Source: a virus. From it: DNA of 6,005 bases. Positions 1-6,005 of this stretch are shown here, piece after piece. A program made the position numbers and the translations under genes. The notes under the pieces are model-generated. The model saw nothing but the letters and a program-made list of their open reading frames with translations. It did not search any database and was not told the origin of the DNA. The stretch is taken from the IMG/VR virus record IMGVR_UViG_3300020030_000088, positions 1 to 6,005 of that record; one strand, 5' to 3'. Every line of letters starts with the position of its first letter. Position 1 is the first letter of the stretch.

Positions 1-78
1 GCAGCTTTGCGTTTTTTAAAGAGATCTCGTGATCAGAACCCCAATTTAAAGTTCGACTGTCTTGAATCTTTGTTTTAA
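1..78 (+). CDS. 3' end (25 codons plus stop) of the 65-aa small basic protein gene. Duplicate of 5885-5962.
   Basis: Frame 1 reads AALRFLKRSRDQNPNLKFDCLESLF-stop, identical to the C-terminus of ORF 5765..5962. The 5' part lies at the other end of the circle. Confidence 0.75.
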   Translation, partial: AALRFLKRSRDQNPNLKFDCLESLF

Positions 79-121
79 TCATGGCCTGCCAGTCTCCTAT
101 ATGGATTAGAAACCGTCGTTA
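1..121. repeat. Terminal redundancy, copy 1. Identical to 5885-6005, the signature of a circular 5884-nt genome linearised with overlap.
   Basis: Base-by-base comparison shows 1-121 equals 5885-6005 with no mismatch. The identity runs to both window edges at an offset of 5884. Confidence 0.95.
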
Positions 122-1151
122 TTACGACAAGAAGAACCCTTCTCGTCTTGGTTCTGATGTTGCGTGCTCTGCGCTTGCGCTTCGCCCCTGGGATGTTTCT
201 CGCCAGTGGCTTATGGTTCCTTGTGGTAAGTGCGAGGATTGCCTTCGCCGCCTTCGCAACGATTGGTTTGTTCGTATAGAGCGTGAGTTGGCTCGGTGCA
301 AGGCCGAGTCCCGGCAGGCCATTTTTATTACTATCACTATTAATCCCGTCCATTATCAGGACGCACTTCTCGACCCTTCTTCATTTGTACGCAAATGGAA
401 TGAGCGAATTCGACACAAGATTGGTCATTCTTTTAAACATTGCTTCTTCCAGGAGTTTGGAGTTCATCCGGAGATTGGATCTGAACCCCGTTTGCATTTT
501 CATGGGTTCCTTTTTGGAACGGATGTTTTGTATAATGAAATCCGGTCGGCGGTTTCTGACCTTGGATATGTATGGCTTTCGAAAGCTACGCTTAAGCGTG
601 CTCGATATTGCGTTAAATATGTTGTTAAACAGATTGGCTTTGATCTCGATCAGATTAAAGACCGTTATGTTACTGTAGATGGAAAATTACAATCTCTTTC
701 TTCCCTTCTTGAACACAGGCGCTATACCCGTAAGTTTGTCAGCCCTGGTGTGGGTGATTTCCTTGGCTATAAGCCTTGCCCTTCTGTACATGTTGCGTCT
801 TGGTCTTATATGGACGCTTCGAAAGGTGTCGTATATAATTACGCGATCCCTCGATACTACAATCGCTATCTTAAACCAGAAGACGAAAGACGAAAGGCCG
901 TATTGGCTGCTGATGCGTATTCACGTTTCAGCAAGTCTCCTTTGGTGCGTCGTATCGTGTCTCTGTGTGTTGCATCTTTCCTTCCCGCTGCCTCCGTATC
1001 CGGTCGAGATACATACACCTGGGAGCAGAAGCAGGTAATGAAATTTCGTGCCTCAAAGCGCAAGATGCCTGATCTGGATCCTCCGACCTTTCTGGATGAG
1101 GACATCTTGCGTTTTTGGCGTGATGAGTATAATCTTCAACTAATTATTTAA
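81..1151 (+). CDS. VP4: Replication initiation protein (Microviridae VP4, HUH rolling-circle endonuclease), 356 aa
   Basis: RCR motif I-like AIFITITIN. HUH motif LHFHGFLF with H139/H141 at nt 495-503. Paired catalytic tyrosines YCVKYVVKQ with Y176 at nt 606-608 and Y180 at nt 618-620, the same YxxKY arrangement as phiX174 gene A protein. N-terminal Cys cluster CGKCEDC is typical of microviral VP4. The gene sits directly upstream of the capsid gene, with its stop 2 nt before the VP1 ATG. Confidence 0.9.
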   Translation: MACQSPIWIRNRRYYDKKNPSRLGSDVACSALALRPWDVSRQWLMVPCGKCEDCLRRLRNDWFVRIERELARCKAESRQAIFITITINPVHYQDALLDPSSFVRKWNERIRHKIGHSFKHCFFQEFGVHPEIGSEPRLHFHGFLFGTDVLYNEIRSAVSDLGYVWLSKATLKRARYCVKYVVKQIGFDLDQIKDRYVTVDGKLQSLSSLLEHRRYTRKFVSPGVGDFLGYKPCPSVHVASWSYMDASKGVVYNYAIPRYYNRYLKPEDERRKAVLAADAYSRFSKSPLVRRIVSLCVASFLPAASVSGRDTYTWEQKQVMKFRASKRKMPDLDPPTFLDEDILRFWRDEYNLQLII

Positions 1152-1153
1152 TT

Positions 1154-2968
1154 ATGGGAAAACAGCCCTTTGTTTCACATGTTGTGAATGGCTATTCTCG
1201 CTACGATGTTCCCGAGAATAAGGCCTTTACGTGCACGCCGGGTATTTTGTATCCGGTGCGTATTGATTTTATTAACGCCCGTGACCGCGTTTCTATCGAG
1301 CAGGGTATTGATGTTCGCAGTAATCCTCTTGCTGTTCCGACATTCAACCCTTACACTGTTCGTCTTCATCGTTTCTGGGTGCCATTGCAGTTGTATCACT
1401 CGGAGATGCGCGTCAACTCATCGAAGTTTGATATGAATTCTCTTTCGACGAATTGGATACCGGCTTCCATTAATACAGATCCCAATTTGGGTGCCTCGAA
1501 GACTGGCTACCCTAATAGCCTGCTTTCCTGGCTTCGTGTTTCGAATCGCGTTCTCAACAAGGATTCTAGTACAGCTACCTACCAGTCGCAGACTCTTCCC
1601 TCTCCCCTGGATAATCAGCGTTGGGTTAATGCTGACCCGTATCTCGCTTATTGGGATATTGTTCGCAATTATTATAGCTACTCGCAGTGGTCTCTATTCT
1701 CCATGGCTTGGCCGGCTTCTTGGTCTATTTTTAATACCAGTGATGCGCCTGGTACTGTTGATCTTACCACCGTTTTTTCTGCCGAGTCGAGTTATTTTTC
1801 GCAGACTTACGCTAACCTCGAATTCCTTGACGCCTATTTTGAAAGTCAATTCTACCCCTCGGCCGTTGTTTCATCCAACAACACGTTTAATCGTTCGAAT
1901 TTGTTCTATCAGCTGATAAATTCTCAAATCCGCAGCTCTTCGGGTGTTGACTCCTCGGGTTATCCTGTTTGGTCTGATCCTCTTACTATGAGTTCATCGG
2001 ATTTCACCGGCGATCGCCCCGCTTCGCAGGTTTCGACCTCCGGTAGTGCTACTAACGTCGTTACTCCTATTGGGCTGTTCCTTTCAGCTCATCCGATGGC
2101 TGTAGTGCCCTCAAACCCTGATCGATTTAGTCGTCTTATTCCTACGGGTTCAGCGTCTGCCGTTTCGATGGCCGGCGTGTCTACTATCCCGCAGCTGGCC
2201 ATTGCTTCGCGTCTTCAGGAATATAAGGACCTTCTCGGAGCCGGCGGTAGTCGTTATAGCGATTGGTTGGAAACGTTCTTCGCCTCAAAGATTGAGCACG
2301 TTGACCGTCCTAAACTCTTATTTTCGGCTTCGCAGACTGTTAATGTTCAGGTTGTCATGAATCAGGCTGGAAATGGTAATTTCAGTACCGAAGAAGGCTT
2401 TCCTCCTCTTGGTCAGCAAGGTGGTGCTATTGCTTTCAATACTAGGCTCGGTCGCCGCCAGTCGTATTATTTCCGTGAGCCCGGCTATTTGATTGACATG
2501 TTGAGTATTAGACCTGTTTATTACTGGTCGCAAATTCGTCCTGATTATCTGAATTACCAGGGCCCTGATTACTTCAACCCTATTTATAACGATATTGGGT
2601 ATCAGGACGTTCCCGTTTACCTTCTTGGTCCCGCGGGCCATACTGTTTCGACTTCTACTCTTTCGACCGAACCTTGCTTTAATGAGTTCCGCAGCAGCTA
2701 TGATGAGGTTCTAGGTCAGATCTCTCGTTCGAATGGTTTTGGTACTTCAGCCTCTGTTTATTCTTATTGGGTGCAGCAGCGTGGTCTTCCTGATTTTGTT
2801 AATAATACCGACACTGTTTATTATCCGTTCCTTTTTGTGGATATGTCGCAGGTAAATTCCCCTTTCGCTTCTAACGTAGAGGACAATTTCTTTGTTAATA
2901 TGTCTTACGCCGTCCAGAAGAAGAATCTTATAAATAAAACCTTTGCAACTCGTTTGTCTAATCGCTAA
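1154..2968 (+). CDS. VP1: Major capsid protein (Microviridae VP1 / F-protein family), 604 aa
   Basis: Largest ORF, of a size typical for non-phiX microviral capsid proteins. The N-terminal pattern TPGILYPV...RSNPLAVPTFNPYTVRLHRFWVPLQLY resembles the conserved G-x-L-x-P ... R-x-x-P ... F-x-VP block of VP1/F proteins. Strong third-position T/C codon bias. Its shadow ORFs behave as expected for a real gene. Confidence 0.9.
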   Translation: MGKQPFVSHVVNGYSRYDVPENKAFTCTPGILYPVRIDFINARDRVSIEQGIDVRSNPLAVPTFNPYTVRLHRFWVPLQLYHSEMRVNSSKFDMNSLSTNWIPASINTDPNLGASKTGYPNSLLSWLRVSNRVLNKDSSTATYQSQTLPSPLDNQRWVNADPYLAYWDIVRNYYSYSQWSLFSMAWPASWSIFNTSDAPGTVDLTTVFSAESSYFSQTYANLEFLDAYFESQFYPSAVVSSNNTFNRSNLFYQLINSQIRSSSGVDSSGYPVWSDPLTMSSSDFTGDRPASQVSTSGSATNVVTPIGLFLSAHPMAVVPSNPDRFSRLIPTGSASAVSMAGVSTIPQLAIASRLQEYKDLLGAGGSRYSDWLETFFASKIEHVDRPKLLFSASQTVNVQVVMNQAGNGNFSTEEGFPPLGQQGGAIAFNTRLGRRQSYYFREPGYLIDMLSIRPVYYWSQIRPDYLNYQGPDYFNPIYNDIGYQDVPVYLLGPAGHTVSTSTLSTEPCFNEFRSSYDEVLGQISRSNGFGTSASVYSYWVQQRGLPDFVNNTDTVYYPFLFVDMSQVNSPFASNVEDNFFVNMSYAVQKKNLINKTFATRLSNR

Positions 2969-2980
2969 ACTGCTGATATT

Positions 2981-3277
2981 ATGGCACTTGATTGGTTACT
3001 TGAGGACGCGCCTGCGTATGTCTCGCGTGGTCAGCGTATTTTATCCGTCCTTGATGGATCCGGCTCCGTTGATGTTCTTCCCGGCCGCCCCGACGTTGAG
3101 GCTACCTCGTCGGATTTTGATAAGGGTGAAAAATTTGATCCCGACATCGACTTCGACCCTAATTCGTTTTCTCGTATGGATAAGTTCGACGGCCTTGAAG
3201 TCGGTCAGGAACTTATTGATTCCCAGCTTGATGCAGGCAAGCCCTCTTCGAGCTCGTCGTCAACTGAAGAAAAATAG
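2981..3277 (+). CDS. Small, highly acidic protein (98 aa) with a C-terminal Ser run. Possibly an internal scaffolding-like (VP3-like) protein, but function unproven.
   Basis: ATG 12 nt after the VP1 stop, with the same codon bias as the core genes. D/E-rich composition (for example DFDKGEKFDPDIDFDPNSF) ending in KPSSSSSSTEEK. The position next to VP1 matches where gokushovirus-type genomes carry small structural or scaffolding genes. I recognise no specific motif. Confidence 0.6.
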   Translation: MALDWLLEDAPAYVSRGQRILSVLDGSGSVDVLPGRPDVEATSSDFDKGEKFDPDIDFDPNSFSRMDKFDGLEVGQELIDSQLDAGKPSSSSSSTEEK

Positions 3278-3307
3278 TACTATCTTTACTTGACGATATA
3301 TGTTACG

Positions 3308-3386
3308 TGCGCGGACCCCTTCTGTGGAGAGTTCGTGAATCCGCAAAGGTTCCCGGGTACCGACTGCAGGAGGGCCGCGTATTTTT
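3308..3386 (+). terminator. GC-rich branched stem-loop (island A) followed by a T5 tract. Candidate intrinsic terminator or ssDNA/RNA structural element.
   Basis: Outer stem 3308-3314 pairs with 3375-3381 (tgcgcgg/ccgcgta, one G-T pair). After bulged a3315, 3316-3318 pairs with 3372-3374 (ccc/ggg). Inner stem 3322-3327 pairs with 3364-3369 (ctgtgg/ctgcag, two G-T pairs). Apical hairpin 3337-3341 pairs with 3348-3352 (gaatc/ggttc) with loop cgcaaa. The 3' half of the outer stem is followed by a-ttttt (3382-3386). By hand count the 3306-3380 core is about 65% G+C in an otherwise T-rich genome. It lies at the end of the ORF65-VP4-VP1-ORF98 gene block. Confidence 0.45.
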
Positions 3387-3473
3387 CTATCGTTCTTTAA
3401 TGTTTTATGGAGGTCGCCTCTATCTAACTTATTGACCTTAAGTTTATTATTTTTTTTTAAATTTATTGCTGCA

Positions 3474-3659
3474 ATGAAGTTTAAAGATCTTATTCACTCC
3501 AAGAAATTTTGGACTCTGGTTGCCGCTGTTGTCGCTGCTCTTTCGGCGTTCTTCTTGTCCTCGTGTTCTGCACAGGCTAAAGTTTATCGTTATGGTGTTC
3601 ATATTGACACTGTTCGTGTAGACTACATTATTCGTTCGAACAACTATAGCCTTCCCTAG
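3474..3659 (+). CDS. Small predicted lipoprotein (61-aa precursor, about 31-aa mature peptide), function unknown
   Basis: MKFKDLIHSKK (basic n-region), then FWTLVAAVVAALSAFF (hydrophobic h-region), then the lipobox L-S-S-C with Cys31 at nt 3564-3566. This fits the generic bacterial lipoprotein signal pattern. ATG 3474 is preferred over the track's TTG at 3432. The stop (3657-3659) is 1 nt before the VP2 ATG (3661). An in-register antisense shadow ORF and the shared codon bias support coding. Confidence 0.7.
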   Translation: MKFKDLIHSKKFWTLVAAVVAALSAFFLSSCSAQAKVYRYGVHIDTVRVDYIIRSNNYSLP

Positions 3660-3660
3660 T

Positions 3661-4923
3661 ATGCAGCTCATTGACTTTAAAAGTTACGTCGAGCCTGTTT
3701 CTACGGGTGCTATGCTCGGTGCTGCTGCCCTTTCCGCTGGCGGCCAGGTTGCCTCTGGCCTTTTTAAACCATCTCTCAAGCGTCAGTGGAAGTATCAGCA
3801 GAAGCAGATGAAGCTCCAACAGCAGTACGCTTTGGAACAGATGCAGAAACAAGGTGAAATTAATTATGCCAACTGGCAGAAGCAATTCGACTATGAGAAC
3901 GCCTATAACGATCCCTCGAAAGTCTTTGATCGCTACCTTAAAGCTGGTGTCACTCCTGCTGCTGTCCTTGGGTCCTCTGGTGTTGGTGTTAATGCTACTA
4001 TGCCTGGTGGTTCTCCTGGCTCTGTAGGCGCTTCTGGCCCCTCTGGAGGTTCGTTTGATTTCTCCAGTCCTCTGCCTCCCGGCGTTGGTGCTGCTGCTGC
4101 TGGAACTGCTCTTGAGGCTATGAATGTCAATGCATCCATCGAGCGCAACAAAGCCGCTGCCAACCTTGATAACGCTCAAGCCGAGGACATTCGCAATAAG
4201 ATGCCTACCAAGGAGCAGGGTCAGGCCCTTATCGAGCTTGAGAAGCAGTTGAAACAGGCTAACATCAACAATCAATCTGCGCTCGCCTCTTATTACGGCG
4301 AGTTGGCTATCAATCAAGAGGCTTACAATCGGTATGCCGACCTTGCCGCTACCTATGATTTTCAGCGCATTGTTGCCGCTTATACTGAACAGGTTGAACG
4401 CACGAGGCGCATTCGTGCCGAGAATGATGCCGAGATTCCTCTTTTGGACCAGTCTGCTGCTGCTAATCTTGCTTATCTCCGTGCTCTTGCCTCCGCCTCT
4501 AATGCTGCTGCTCGCGAGTCTTGGAGTCGTTCCGGTCTTCTTGACCTTCAGCAGAGCGATATGCAGCACATGTTTGAGGTGACTTGGGATACCCCCGTTA
4601 AGGTTCCTCTTGTTGACGATAAGGGCAAGCCTACTGGTGAGTACGAGGAAATTACCGGTCGCGAGTATTATTCTTATCTTCATGGTCTTGAGCTTGGCGA
4701 GATGCGGCAGAGTCTTTCTGGTAATTGGTTTCAGATTCGTAAGAACAAGAACGCTCTTTTCTATGATGTCACGAAGTCCTTCGCTACTGCTGCAGGTGTG
4801 TATGCAGCATCAAAGTCCGGTGGTTCTTCTGCGTCGGAAACCATGACTGAACGTTATGGCCCTGATGGTGATTTTATCGGAGGCACTCGCGTTACTCGAT
4901 CTCAAATAGGGAAAAAGCGATAA
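3661..4923 (+). CDS. VP2: Minor capsid / DNA pilot protein (Microviridae VP2, H-like), 420 aa
   Basis: An N-terminal hydrophobic Gly/Ala segment is followed by a Q/K-rich helix. The block YENAYNDPSKVFDRYLKAGVTPAAVLG matches the conserved VP2 signature (aromatic-x-N-x-x-N-S/D-P ... R-x-x-x-AG-L/V-N/T-P). A Gly/Ser/Pro/Ala low-complexity linker and a long predicted coiled-coil region follow. It is the second-largest ORF, as expected for VP2. Confidence 0.8.
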   Translation: MQLIDFKSYVEPVSTGAMLGAAALSAGGQVASGLFKPSLKRQWKYQQKQMKLQQQYALEQMQKQGEINYANWQKQFDYENAYNDPSKVFDRYLKAGVTPAAVLGSSGVGVNATMPGGSPGSVGASGPSGGSFDFSSPLPPGVGAAAAGTALEAMNVNASIERNKAAANLDNAQAEDIRNKMPTKEQGQALIELEKQLKQANINNQSALASYYGELAINQEAYNRYADLAATYDFQRIVAAYTEQVERTRRIRAENDAEIPLLDQSAAANLAYLRALASASNAAARESWSRSGLLDLQQSDMQHMFEVTWDTPVKVPLVDDKGKPTGEYEEITGREYYSYLHGLELGEMRQSLSGNWFQIRKNKNALFYDVTKSFATAAGVYAASKSGGSSASETMTERYGPDGDFIGGTRVTRSQIGKKR

Positions 4924-4951
4924 ATTTAACAATTTTGTGGACATTTTGATC

Positions 4952-4982
4952 TTTGTTTTTCGCTGCAGTGCACTTATATTTG
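4952..4982 (+). promoter_or_regulatory. Bacteroides-type promoter (-33 TTTG, 19-nt spacer, -7 TAnnTTTG)
   Basis: TTTG at 4952-4955, a 19-nt spacer, then TATATTTG at 4975-4982, an exact match to TAnnTTTG. It lies in the 83-nt gap after VP2, about 25 nt upstream of the ATG at 5007. The consensus is recalled from published Bacteroides fragilis promoter analyses. Confidence 0.55.
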
Positions 4983-5006
4983 CATAAACCTTTAAACCAA
5001 GACATT

Positions 5007-5252
5007 ATGACACGCAATTCTAAAATTTTCGTTAATCAGTTCATTTCTTTCCTTGTTGCACATCAGGCTTTTGATTGGTACGTAACAAACTTTATCGCCA
5101 GCTTTCCTCGTATGCCGTTGGATCAGTTTGTTGATACGACTGTAATCGATTGTTGGCTTGTCTGCGCCTTCGATTTTGGTAAAACTCCTGAAGGCCATGA
5201 TTTTTGGTTCCGCCTTAACAATGAATGGCGTGCAATTGCGAGACATTTTTAA
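5007..5252 (+). CDS. Hypothetical protein, 81 aa (Trp/Phe-rich, motif FGKTPEGHDFWFRLNNEW)
   Basis: ATG at 5007 lies downstream of the predicted promoter. The track's TTG start at 4953 would sit inside the promoter, so it is rejected. Codon bias matches the core genes, and an in-register antisense shadow ORF (4992..5246) is present. I recognise no family with certainty. Confidence 0.6.
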   Translation: MTRNSKIFVNQFISFLVAHQAFDWYVTNFIASFPRMPLDQFVDTTVIDCWLVCAFDFGKTPEGHDFWFRLNNEWRAIARHF

Positions 5253-5264
5253 TTTTTATAAATT

Positions 5265-5588
5265 ATGACTTCTATCCATTTTTGTTTTCGCCGTATTAAT
5301 CCGGCTCTCTCTATCGATCTCTGTTCTATAGGCACTGTCGTTGAGGACCATTTCGTTCCTCTCGATGACGCCCGTCTTGACGCTCTTAAGCGTTGGATGG
5401 AATCTCTCAATCTCGGCGATTTCATTTGTCGTGATACTATTAGCACCGAATCCTATGTTCACCATGACCGGATTAGCTCTTTCCTTAATGCTTTTCCCGT
5501 CAAATCGGTCGATTTCTTCCAGGATTCGCTTATCGTTGTTGTAGAACTTACACTTGATGGACATGTCACGCCGTCGGAAGAAAAGTAA
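5265..5588 (+). CDS. Hypothetical protein, 107 aa
   Basis: ATG with an AT-rich upstream context like all other starts. About 85% pyrimidine at codon position 3, and the same preferred codons (cgt, ctt, gat, gtt, tct, tcg) as VP1. It also produces both diagnostic shadow ORFs: a hydrophobic +1-frame ORF (5341..5544) and an in-register antisense ORF (5256..5624). No recognisable domain. Confidence 0.6.
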   Translation: MTSIHFCFRRINPALSIDLCSIGTVVEDHFVPLDDARLDALKRWMESLNLGDFICRDTISTESYVHHDRISSFLNAFPVKSVDFFQDSLIVVVELTLDGHVTPSEEK

Positions 5589-5745
5589 GGGTACTCGCGT
5601 CGTAACGCGCCCCCTTGGAGGCAAAGTCCTCTAATTGGTACCTGAAGCAGGCGTAGACGGCCAACGGCCGTGGCCATCCACGGAGTGGATATTGGACTCT
5701 GCGCCTGCTTCTCCATTTGATCGCAGTCGACTTGTCGAATCGATC
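5589..5745 (+). other. GC-rich multi-hairpin island B: two Y-shaped domains plus a third hairpin. Candidate ssDNA replication signal, RNA 3'-end structure or ncRNA.
   Basis: Domain 1: closing helix 5590-5594 with 5638-5642 (ggtac/gtacc); hairpin 5596-5600 with 5605-5609 (cgcgt/acgcg, loop cgta); hairpin 5615-5621 with 5628-5634 (ttggagg/cctctaa, one G-T pair, loop caaagt). Domain 2: 14-bp helix 5644-5657 with 5698-5711 (gaagcaggcgtaga/tctgcgcctgcttc, one G-T pair) enclosing hairpin 5658-5662 with 5666-5670 (cggcc/ggccg, loop aac) and hairpin 5676-5681 with 5685-5690 (atccac/gtggat, loop gga). Third hairpin: 5719-5723 with 5741-5745 (gatcg/cgatc) plus an inner helix, nominally 5727-5731 with 5734-5738 (tcgac/gtcga), where the apical c5731-g5734 pair would leave only a 2-nt loop, so realistically 4 bp (5727-5730 with 5735-5738) closing loop cttg. 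By hand count 5589-5711 is about 61% G+C. Confidence 0.5.
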
Positions 5746-5764
5746 TTCGTAAAATACTAAAATT

Positions 5765-5962
5765 ATGGATTACTGTGATGCTCCGAAATTTTGTCCTGCT
5801 GTTTCTGGTTCTCTTCTCCGGTGGTCTGTTGCCTTTTACCGAGGACGACGCCGGTTCGTTATAGCTTGGTTTGAGTCTGAAGCCGCAGCTTTGCGTTTTT
5901 TAAAGAGATCTCGTGATCAGAACCCCAATTTAAAGTTCGACTGTCTTGAATCTTTGTTTTAA
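5765..5962 (+). CDS. Small basic protein, 65 aa. Possible AP2/integrase-type DNA-binding fold (weak).
   Basis: ATG with an AT-rich leader, and a stop 2 nt before the VP4 ATG at 5965 (equivalent to 81). The segment RWSVAFYRGRRRFVIAWFESEAAALRFLK follows the AP2-like pattern W-x-[AV]-x-[IF]...basic...[VI]-x-hydrophobic-x-F-x-[ST]-x-E-x-A-A-x-x-[YF]. Net positive charge (11 K/R against 7 D/E by hand count). Confidence 0.6.
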   Translation: MDYCDAPKFCPAVSGSLLRWSVAFYRGRRRFVIAWFESEAAALRFLKRSRDQNPNLKFDCLESLF

Positions 5963-6005
5963 TCATGGCCTGCCAGTCTCCTATATGGATTAGAAACCGT
6001 CGTTA
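5885..6005. repeat. Terminal redundancy, copy 2. Identical to 1-121.
   Basis: See copy 1. It contains the end of the 65-aa ORF and the first 13 codons (plus 2 nt) of VP4. Confidence 0.95.
5965..6005 (+). CDS. VP4: 5' end of the VP4 Rep gene, a duplicate of 81-121 truncated by the window edge
   Basis: Sequence identical to 81-121 (MACQSPIWIRNRR...). Confidence 0.85.
   Translation, partial: MACQSPIWIRNRR

Follow-up and report, generated by a model that had tools for sequence, protein, structure and literature searches.

The subject of this analysis is a stretch of 6,005 nucleotides of viral DNA (IMG/VR record IMGVR_UViG_3300020030_000088, positions 1 to 6,005; the whole stretch is referred to as the window), which is a near-complete microvirus genome. 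We show that positions 3474–3659 on the plus strand hold a functional gene of a lytic microvirus of about 6 kb, related to prophages of Alistipes; its product has the sequence features of a lipoprotein precursor. A preliminary description of the window, made from the letters alone, had proposed for this gene, located directly upstream of the gene for the DNA pilot protein VP2, a possible role in either lysis or superinfection exclusion. The gene and the predicted lipoprotein are borne out by comparison with relatives, while the choice between the two roles depends on indirect reasoning. Tentatively, and with a probability that we place somewhat short of even, we favour a periplasmic lipopeptide that excludes superinfecting phages or blocks their entry.

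Microviruses are among the most abundant gut phages, and their genes beyond those for capsid, pilot and replication proteins are almost wholly uncharacterised; how they lyse cells and exclude one another is unknown outside phiX174. Small phage lipoproteins are of a known kind, but a large, conserved and modular Microviridae family tied to Alistipes is undescribed except for an automatic name, "MAG TPA: lipoprotein [Microviridae sp.]", carried by one nr record.

The lipoprotein precursor and its conservation

The open reading frame (ORF) of 61 amino acids extends from the ATG at 3474 to the TAG at 3657–3659 (MKFKDLIHSKKFWTLVAAVVAALSAFFLSSCSAQAKVYRYGVHIDTVRVDYIIRSNNYSLP), and divides at the lipobox into a predicted signal peptide (MKFKDLIHSKKFWTLVAAVVAALSAFFLSSC) and a mature part (SAQAKVYRYGVHIDTVRVDYIIRSNNYSLP). 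The signal peptide (residues 1–30, 3474..3563, plus strand), supported by column conservation, the ratio of nonsynonymous to synonymous change (dN/dS) and an AlphaFold2 (AF2) model, has an n-region (M1–K11) with four lysines and one aspartate, followed by an h-region (F12–L28) of 17 residues, none of them charged, and holds the invariant motifs S-K-x-F-W-T-L and A-A-L-x-A-F-F. In the AF2 model, based on a 34-sequence alignment, the precursor forms a single long helix, confident for residues 10–30 (predicted local distance difference test, pLDDT, 85–91). The lipobox L28-S29-S30-C31 occupies 3555..3566, with the Cys31 codon TGT at 3564–3566. The mature peptide of 31 residues (CSAQAKVYRYGVHIDTVRVDYIIRSNNYSLP; 3564..3656), assigned below to type A1 and supported by conservation and dN/dS, ends 30 residues past the cysteine with no hydrophobic segment there, contains one proline, and has no cysteine other than the one predicted to be lipidated. 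Since the residues after Cys31 (S-A-Q-A-K) lack the acidic surface-export signal of Bacteroidota lipoproteins, the mature peptide is predicted to face the periplasm. Its residues alternate in a strand-like manner about an N-G/R-x-G turn, as might be expected of a small β-hairpin that would need a partner to fold.

As a formal check, we applied a rule in the style of PROSITE PS51257, which calls for Lys or Arg among the first seven residues, six uncharged residues before the lipobox, and the pattern [LIVMFWSTAG]2-[LIVMFYSTAGCQ]-[AGS]-C with the cysteine at position 15–35. The window ORF passes, with K2 and K4, the segment A-L-S-A-F-F-L-S-S-C and the cysteine at position 31, as does the homologue in every related locus. 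The background is low, in that 25 of about 5,900 other ATG-initiated ORF candidates in 80 related genomes pass, mostly alternative-frame junk. Every feature of a signal peptidase II lipoprotein that was checked is present in the predicted protein, and the basic n-region, hydrophobic core, LSSC lipobox, Cys31 and predicted lipidated peptide of about 31 residues in the preliminary description are correct in all details.

Among 5.8 billion proteins, 458 homologues were found, the best 120 of which are 70–87% identical to the window protein. All are encoded by microviruses or microvirus prophages, on contigs that are almost all about 6 kb. A hidden Markov model (HMM) search of 1.84 billion cluster representatives gave 67 matches, all apparently of the same microvirus family and none of them cellular. 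No homology was found to sequences in Pfam, PHROGs, NCBIfam, PADLOC or the PDB, even at E ≤ 10. The cysteine is invariant in 120/120 of the best homologues, and no subtype or signal-peptide variant lacks it; in the same 120, the residues at positions −1 to −3 all fall within [LMAVTS][SAVTE][SG]. In the mature part, the core G-[VI]-H-[IV]-D-T-V-R-V-D-Y-I-I-R-S is close to invariant.

Across 82 genes, dN/dS is 0.087 for the whole gene, with synonymous sites saturated (proportion of synonymous differences, pS, 0.63), 0.081 for the signal peptide, and 0.059–0.092 for the mature part, the lowest value being obtained with the last six residues left out. The reading frame is under strong purifying selection and the gene is real. 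Invariant residues are encoded by up to four synonymous codons, so that selection acts on the protein in this frame; an overlapping element as the cause of the conservation was ruled out, since third positions vary freely at these residues. The preliminary description had named loss or disruption of the frame in close relatives as evidence against a gene, and not one broken copy was found in about 135 viral loci, nor any polymorphism between intact and broken forms.

A modular family in microviruses of Alistipes

Every examined relative with VP1 (major capsid protein) at least 47% identical to that of the window has a member of the family, of type A, type B or a variant, upstream of VP2. In some GenBank relatives with VP1 63–69% identical, the same slot is occupied by a 65-residue ORF, 2 nt before VP2, that has the signal peptide of the window gene and a different mature peptide (type B, CTTRHYVVQSASSVKSGDTTRTTITYEQVGNFKRP). 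On that signal peptide, the mature subtypes A1, A2, B1 and B2 occur together with variants labelled C and D, each subtype being tightly conserved. Types A and B are also found on at least three other signal peptides, which makes at least four overall, and the Alistipes prophages L003 and L004 have the same A1 peptide on different signal peptides. Intermediates such as GVHHDTVKYEQV bridge types A and B, and we therefore treat the types as homologous members of a single family that have a G...D-[TS]-strand core in common; the G...D-[TS]-hydrophobic-x-hydrophobic core is invariant in all mature subtypes. The subtypes are mixed relative to VP1, as in locus L095, where B1 resides on a backbone with VP1 91% identical to that of A1 genomes. 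Subtype does correlate with clusters of whole VP2 sequences, which is best explained by linkage, while the N-terminal variants of VP2 are reassorted among the subtypes, and genomes with and without the lipoprotein have the conserved VP2 core in common. A mosaic of signal and mature peptides of this kind is typical of exclusion or immunity modules.

The lipoprotein is confined to one group of microviruses and is not universal. Two outgroups with complete genomes and VP1 40–44% identical have no family member, and neither does phiHBP1, a cultured microvirus of Bacteroides fragilis that encodes an M15 peptidase.

Among the 67 family representatives, about 30 are long forms of 180–223 residues (proteins P0121–P0163; for example L002 9995–10603, of 203 residues, L131 1440–2027 and L132 2432–3025). 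In these, the lipoprotein ORF lacks its stop and continues in frame through a Ser/Thr/Pro-rich stretch, which overlaps a conserved ORF of 118–135 residues in another frame, to an uncharged run (median 15 residues) and a J-like basic tail (..RRGGRRGKPRPxTKxIPLGGSHL) just before Rep. The fusion is probably a frame coincidence over the overlapping gene. A reading of the long forms as u-spanins was not relied on, because the basic tail corresponds to a J-like, DNA-binding peptide that is encoded separately in the window (5557–5634) and in L001, in the latter as a 28-residue ORF.

The host is placed by prophages. Integrated microvirus prophages of Alistipes code for the peptide, namely those of A. 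montrealensis kh20, a cultured lysogen (prophage at L002), and of two Alistipes metagenome-assembled genomes, and it is also present on Bacteroidales-like metagenomic contigs. The host genus is Alistipes (Bacteroidales), and not Bacteroides or E. coli, the expression hosts suggested in the preliminary description. A1 is the type carried by every Alistipes prophage found. These prophages are 5.5–5.9 kb long, and the integration site is constant, with a HIT-family gene and an HTH_3 gene preceding the prophage. They are flanked by direct repeats of 18–24 bp with TATTATGTTAAAT (L148, 1651–1674 and 7587–7610; L001, 5254–5271 and 10805–10822), which we take to resemble the XerD arm of dif. One prophage type is present on 20 metagenomic contigs. 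Within the prophages, the lipoprotein gene comes first or second, 81 nt from the left attachment site (attL) in L001, where a TAnnTTTG motif resembling the −7 element lies 31 nt upstream of it. The temperate phages have three gene orders, all unlike that of the window, and in these clades the lipoprotein gene is not beside VP2 but precedes other ORFs or Rep. In the temperate L148, an ORF for a hydrophobic peptide of 31 residues (MDAFLNVLANVIPWLILIFLGWILVRATRKK; 6956–7051, plus strand) downstream of VP2, with a TATATTTG motif before it and a GC hairpin and T-run after it, is a candidate small membrane peptide.

Relative to the window, Rep and VP1 of the temperate phages are 26–30% identical and the lipoprotein is 74–80% identical. 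Between clades with about 27% VP1 identity, the A1 peptide is about 75% identical at saturated synonymous sites (pS 0.75), which rules out recent horizontal transfer as the origin of this similarity; as judged from the sequences, it is to be read as long-term constraint or old exchange.

Genomic surroundings of the gene

Upstream of the lipoprotein gene, the window encodes Rep/VP4 (81–1151; PF23343, phrog_942), the F-type major capsid protein VP1 (1154–2968; PF02305) and an acidic ORF of 98 residues (2981–3277). The downstream cistron is the gene for VP2 (3661..4923, plus strand; 420 residues, phrog_8689), the N-terminal core of which could be aligned across clades, and further small ORFs are present. 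Rfam and tRNA scans of the window and the prophage loci gave no matches.

The junction with VP2 reads TAG-T-ATG (3657..3663), so that a single spacer base, T3660, separates the lipoprotein stop from the VP2 start at 3661. This gap of 1 nt is retained in 72/72 readable loci of the type-A clade, over a range of VP2 identity from 40% to 95%, and the gap is 2 nt in the type-B relatives. The conserved tight junction fits the translational coupling to VP2 that had been suggested from its 1-nt gap, and coupling to a structural gene points to stoichiometric, abundant expression. The leader before the lipoprotein ATG is AT-rich and unstructured.

In the intergenic region further upstream, a long GC-rich hairpin (GTGCGCGGACCCC...GGGCCGCG) is followed by a T-run (3307..3387, plus strand). 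The stem-loop at 3307–3380 has a fold z-score of −2.7 and is near-identical within the clade; its consensus has 22 pairs, two of them with compensatory changes. Together with the conserved motif CTTTACTTGACGATATATG at 3284–3306, directly 5′ of the hairpin, the conserved element amounts to about 100 nt. It has no Rfam match and was not flagged by a simple terminator scan. Hairpin and T-run are likely to form a leaky terminator or a DNA structural element; among more specific roles, it could serve as a leaky terminator, as an origin for the complementary strand or as the Rep nick site, and the region may resemble the core of the phiX174 origin. The lipoprotein ATG is within about 30 nt of the hairpin in most relatives. 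An extra AT-rich stretch of about 80 nt, which most relatives lack, is inserted at this place in the window (~3391–3470), and a different, GC-rich and structured insertion of about 85 nt (CACCATTGTGGCGAGGTGACGCATTTCGCGGTTCGGAGAACCGCCCCGAACGAAGTGAGGGTGCGGCACCGTAGC) is found there in L022, L023, L089 and L096, duplicated in L022; L022 and L089 gave no match in Rfam.

No canonical Bacteroides promoter was found between the hairpin and the lipoprotein gene, only relaxed matches, and a sigma-70 scan upstream of the gene gave nothing meaningful. The sole canonical Bacteroides-type −7 motif of the window (TATATTTG, with TTTG at −23 and −30) is at 4975–4982 on the plus strand, just past VP2 and at the start of the accessory-gene region, and may be the main promoter of the genome. 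We infer that transcription passes through the leaky terminator into the lipoprotein–VP2 pair, and that VP2 is translated by coupling to the short ORF.

Two other ORFs deserve mention. Inside Rep, in an alternative frame, an overprinted ORF of 119 residues (679–1038, plus strand) encodes two hydrophobic, transmembrane-like segments and a basic C terminus. Its exact length is preserved in 73/79 relatives and an internal stop occurs in 1/78; by contrast, the majority of relatives have the other alternative-frame ORFs interrupted. Synonymous diversity in the Rep frame drops from 0.45 to 0.20 exactly across 679–1038 (p = 1e-24), and distant relatives, among them the outgroups without the lipoprotein, have a comparable ORF in the +1 frame that encodes hydrophobic segments. 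The 119-residue ORF matches nothing in Pfam or PHROGs. An E-like or holin-like lysis gene is a plausible assignment for this ORF, and it appears to be a better lysis candidate than the lipoprotein, which weakens the earlier argument that the genome offers no other candidate. The second is a highly basic, unannotated ORF of 23–25 residues (MDMSRRRKKSKGTRVVTRPLGGKVL; 5557–5634, plus strand, with an alternative start at 5563), which overlaps the end of a 107-residue ORF (5265–5588), is conserved across the clade as ..RRKKKGKGTKVVTRPLGG[KR]VL and resembles the C-terminal tail of the long-form relatives. We take it to resemble the J/VP8 DNA-packaging peptides.

Possible functions and relation to known systems

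Lgt and LspA of the Bacteroidales host would process the precursor to a 31-residue, N-terminally lipidated peptide. Ribosomes that end on the lipoprotein ORF would re-initiate on VP2, so that the amount of peptide would equal or exceed that of the pilot protein throughout infection. In the mechanism that we tentatively favour, the lipopeptide would bind a conserved component of the host envelope from the periplasmic side and shut the cell to further microvirus entry, which would also spare progeny from loss on infected cells and debris, following the logic of T5 Llp, Cor of phi80/N15 and Ltp of TP-J34. The accessory distribution, the subtype mosaicism, the position at the prophage edge with a promoter-like motif and the apparently abundant, coupled expression seem to speak for an exclusion lipoprotein such as Llp, Cor or Ltp more than for an essential lysis gene. 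From the conservation of A1 across clades with divergent capsids, and its presence in all Alistipes prophages, we infer that the target would be a host factor. Exclusion is preferred over lysis because distant relatives do without the gene and because a better lysis candidate resides in Rep (679–1038). Carriage of a gokushovirus is known to give superinfection immunity, by a mechanism that is unknown (PMC7062461).

Several observations weigh against exclusion. The mature part of the AF2 model has a pLDDT of only 50–60. The clade of the window is found only as free circles or concatemers and never integrated, so that a role in lysogenic conversion is not directly applicable to it. The same A1 peptide in phages with very different capsids argues against the masking of a capsid-specific receptor. 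Subtype does not co-vary with the N-terminal variants of VP2, which opposes an Ltp-like binding of the pilot protein, and Ltp-like co-evolution with that protein was rejected because these variants are shuffled among subtypes. Finally, the signal peptide (dN/dS 0.08) is as constrained as the mature peptide, and one signal peptide is combined with very different mature peptides. A simple exported receptor-blocker does not predict this, and an active membrane segment, as in the colicin lysis proteins or phiX174 E, would fit better.

This last point leads to lysis, which we rank second and consider unlikely as the function. The lipopeptide, the uncleaved precursor or a stable signal peptide would harm the envelope late in infection, either alone, like the colicin lysis proteins, or as an outer-membrane accessory to the inner-membrane protein overprinted in Rep. 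The unusual conservation of a signal peptide shared by divergent mature peptides is what would be expected if the membrane segment is functional, and the conservation of the gene in clades that share a host genus but differ in their capsids agrees with a conserved host target. The gene is never broken, and a canonical lysis gene is lacking, in that the M15 peptidase is absent in about 150 related loci and the proteins of the window have no holin or endolysin match in Pfam or PHROGs. The literature, in agreement with what had been stated at the outset, knows no lysis genes outside the phiX-like microviruses, and contains no prior description of a microvirus lipoprotein or of a single-gene lysis protein of the lipoprotein type. 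The precursor and mature sizes also match those of the colicin lysis proteins, in which the signal peptide has an activity of its own. On the other hand, the complete outgroup genomes without the gene must still lyse, and they possess the 119-residue ORF in Rep, the better candidate. A tight coupling to an abundant structural gene is, furthermore, unsuited to a lethal protein for which timing is critical. The single proline and cysteine and the missing C-terminal transmembrane segment likewise count against lysis, as do the failure to find an i-spanin partner and the lack of homology to Lysis_col or Rz1.

A more far-reaching proposal, rather unlikely in our estimate, is that the lipidated hairpin or its conserved membrane segment is a phage-made protein antibiotic acting on a conserved envelope machine of Alistipes/Bacteroidales, as a single-gene lysis factor of the lipoprotein type or as a strand mimic that jams a periplasmic partner, for example TonB. 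If true, it would be the first of its kind in a single-stranded DNA (ssDNA) phage, and would indicate a new drug-like target in a dominant gut phylum.

Strand mimicry in itself, directed at host-envelope manipulation, seems quite doubtful. The peptide would jam TonB or another periplasmic machine by β-augmentation, cause vesiculation, or counter an envelope defence. The invariant G...D-[TS]-hydrophobic-x-hydrophobic core is in line with such a role, and we take its forms D-[TS]-V-x-V / D-S-V-V-T-T to recall, loosely, the strands of TonB boxes. Conservation is tied to the host genus, and the lack of a cellular homologue among the 1.84 billion representatives would make the peptide a phage invention. 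Against this, the resemblance is purely at the level of a motif and the AF2 model is uninformative.

Bacteroidales mRNAs are mostly without Shine-Dalgarno sites, and the short ORF could be imagined as a cis-acting leader cistron whose translation brings ribosomes to the VP2 start, its signal peptide perhaps also carrying the mRNA–ribosome complex to the membrane for the N-terminal hydrophobic segment of the pilot protein, with the peptide itself secondary. The junction of 1 or 2 nt, invariant even at 40% VP2 identity, the unstructured AT-rich leader and the conserved signal peptide agree with this, but we regard it as very improbable, because the mature peptide is under equal selection at the protein level (dN/dS 0.06–0.09, invariant residues being encoded by as many as four synonymous codons) and conserved on unrelated signal peptides, and because the gene is not beside VP2 in the temperate clades.

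For the envelope functions that are missing from the known repertoire of Bacteroidales microviruses, the lipoprotein and the membrane ORF overprinted in Rep provide two testable candidates, and a mature peptide of 31 residues is short enough for synthesis, which makes target-fishing practical. Arguably as useful are the by-products of the analysis, i.e., the Rep-overprinted ORF itself, the unannotated J-like gene, the intergenic hairpin and the dif-like prophage ends.

As judged by sequence comparison, the window protein is not a member of Lysis_col, Rz1/o-spanin, u-spanin, Llp/Cor/Ltp or phiX174 E, and neither E nor any known family of lysis or exclusion proteins showed homology to it. As for the spanins (o-spanin Rz1 and u-spanin T1 gp11), an outer-membrane-type lipoprotein signal is placed on a very short phage protein, and the relatives of 180–223 residues end in a hydrophobic stretch and a basic tail. 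Unlike Rz1, the window protein is not proline-rich, has no second cysteine and shows no Rz1 homology; its gene is flanked by the acidic 98-residue ORF and VP2, with no i-spanin-like ORF. VP2 does have a hydrophobic N terminus and a coiled coil (PMC3091885), but is the pilot protein of the virion. The C-terminal transmembrane segment of T1 gp11 is also absent.

phiX174 E, the single-gene lysis protein that inhibits MraY, is likewise a small membrane-targeted microvirus protein with a conserved N-terminal hydrophobic segment. E acts from the inner membrane, lacks a lipobox and is encoded by an ORF overprinted in gene D, whereas the lipoprotein gene stands alone in an intergenic slot and encodes a lipobox, a distinction from E that had been drawn from the start. 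The E-like position, that of an overprinted membrane ORF, is here taken by 679–1038 in Rep and not by the lipoprotein.

The colicin lysis proteins or bacteriocin release proteins (BRP; Lysis_col, PF02402) are similar in size, with precursors of about 45–60 residues and mature peptides of 28–35, and in having a lipobox; in both cases the signal peptide seems to matter in itself. The window protein has no Pfam match to Lysis_col at E ≤ 0.1, and none of the 34 family members matches at E ≤ 10. The two differ also in that the present gene belongs to a phage and not to a colicin operon, in that there is no evidence of toxicity, and in the host, since an OmpLA-dependent mechanism is not established in Bacteroidales.

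Ltp of Streptococcus phage TP-J34, which binds the tape-measure protein and thereby blocks DNA injection, is a phage lipoprotein of 142 residues with two folded domains. It has no homology to the window protein, for which the co-variation of subtype with the VP2 N terminus is also missing. Nevertheless, the window protein could block genome delivery in a comparable way, and its gene adjoins that of a functional analogue of an injection protein.

A functional parallel to the exclusion that we tentatively favour is with T5 Llp and with Cor of phi80/N15/HK022, which inactivate FhuA. There is no sequence similarity to these proteins, the mature part of the window protein is half the size of Llp, the coding genome is that of a 6-kb ssDNA microvirus from Bacteroidales, and the peptide is common to phages with very different capsids. 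In both cases, a small phage lipoprotein is made in lytic growth from a gene that adjoins one for the entry apparatus, and would act, as proposed here, from the periplasmic side of the outer membrane. The proposed logic is also the same, in that the door to the cell would be closed and the progeny protected.

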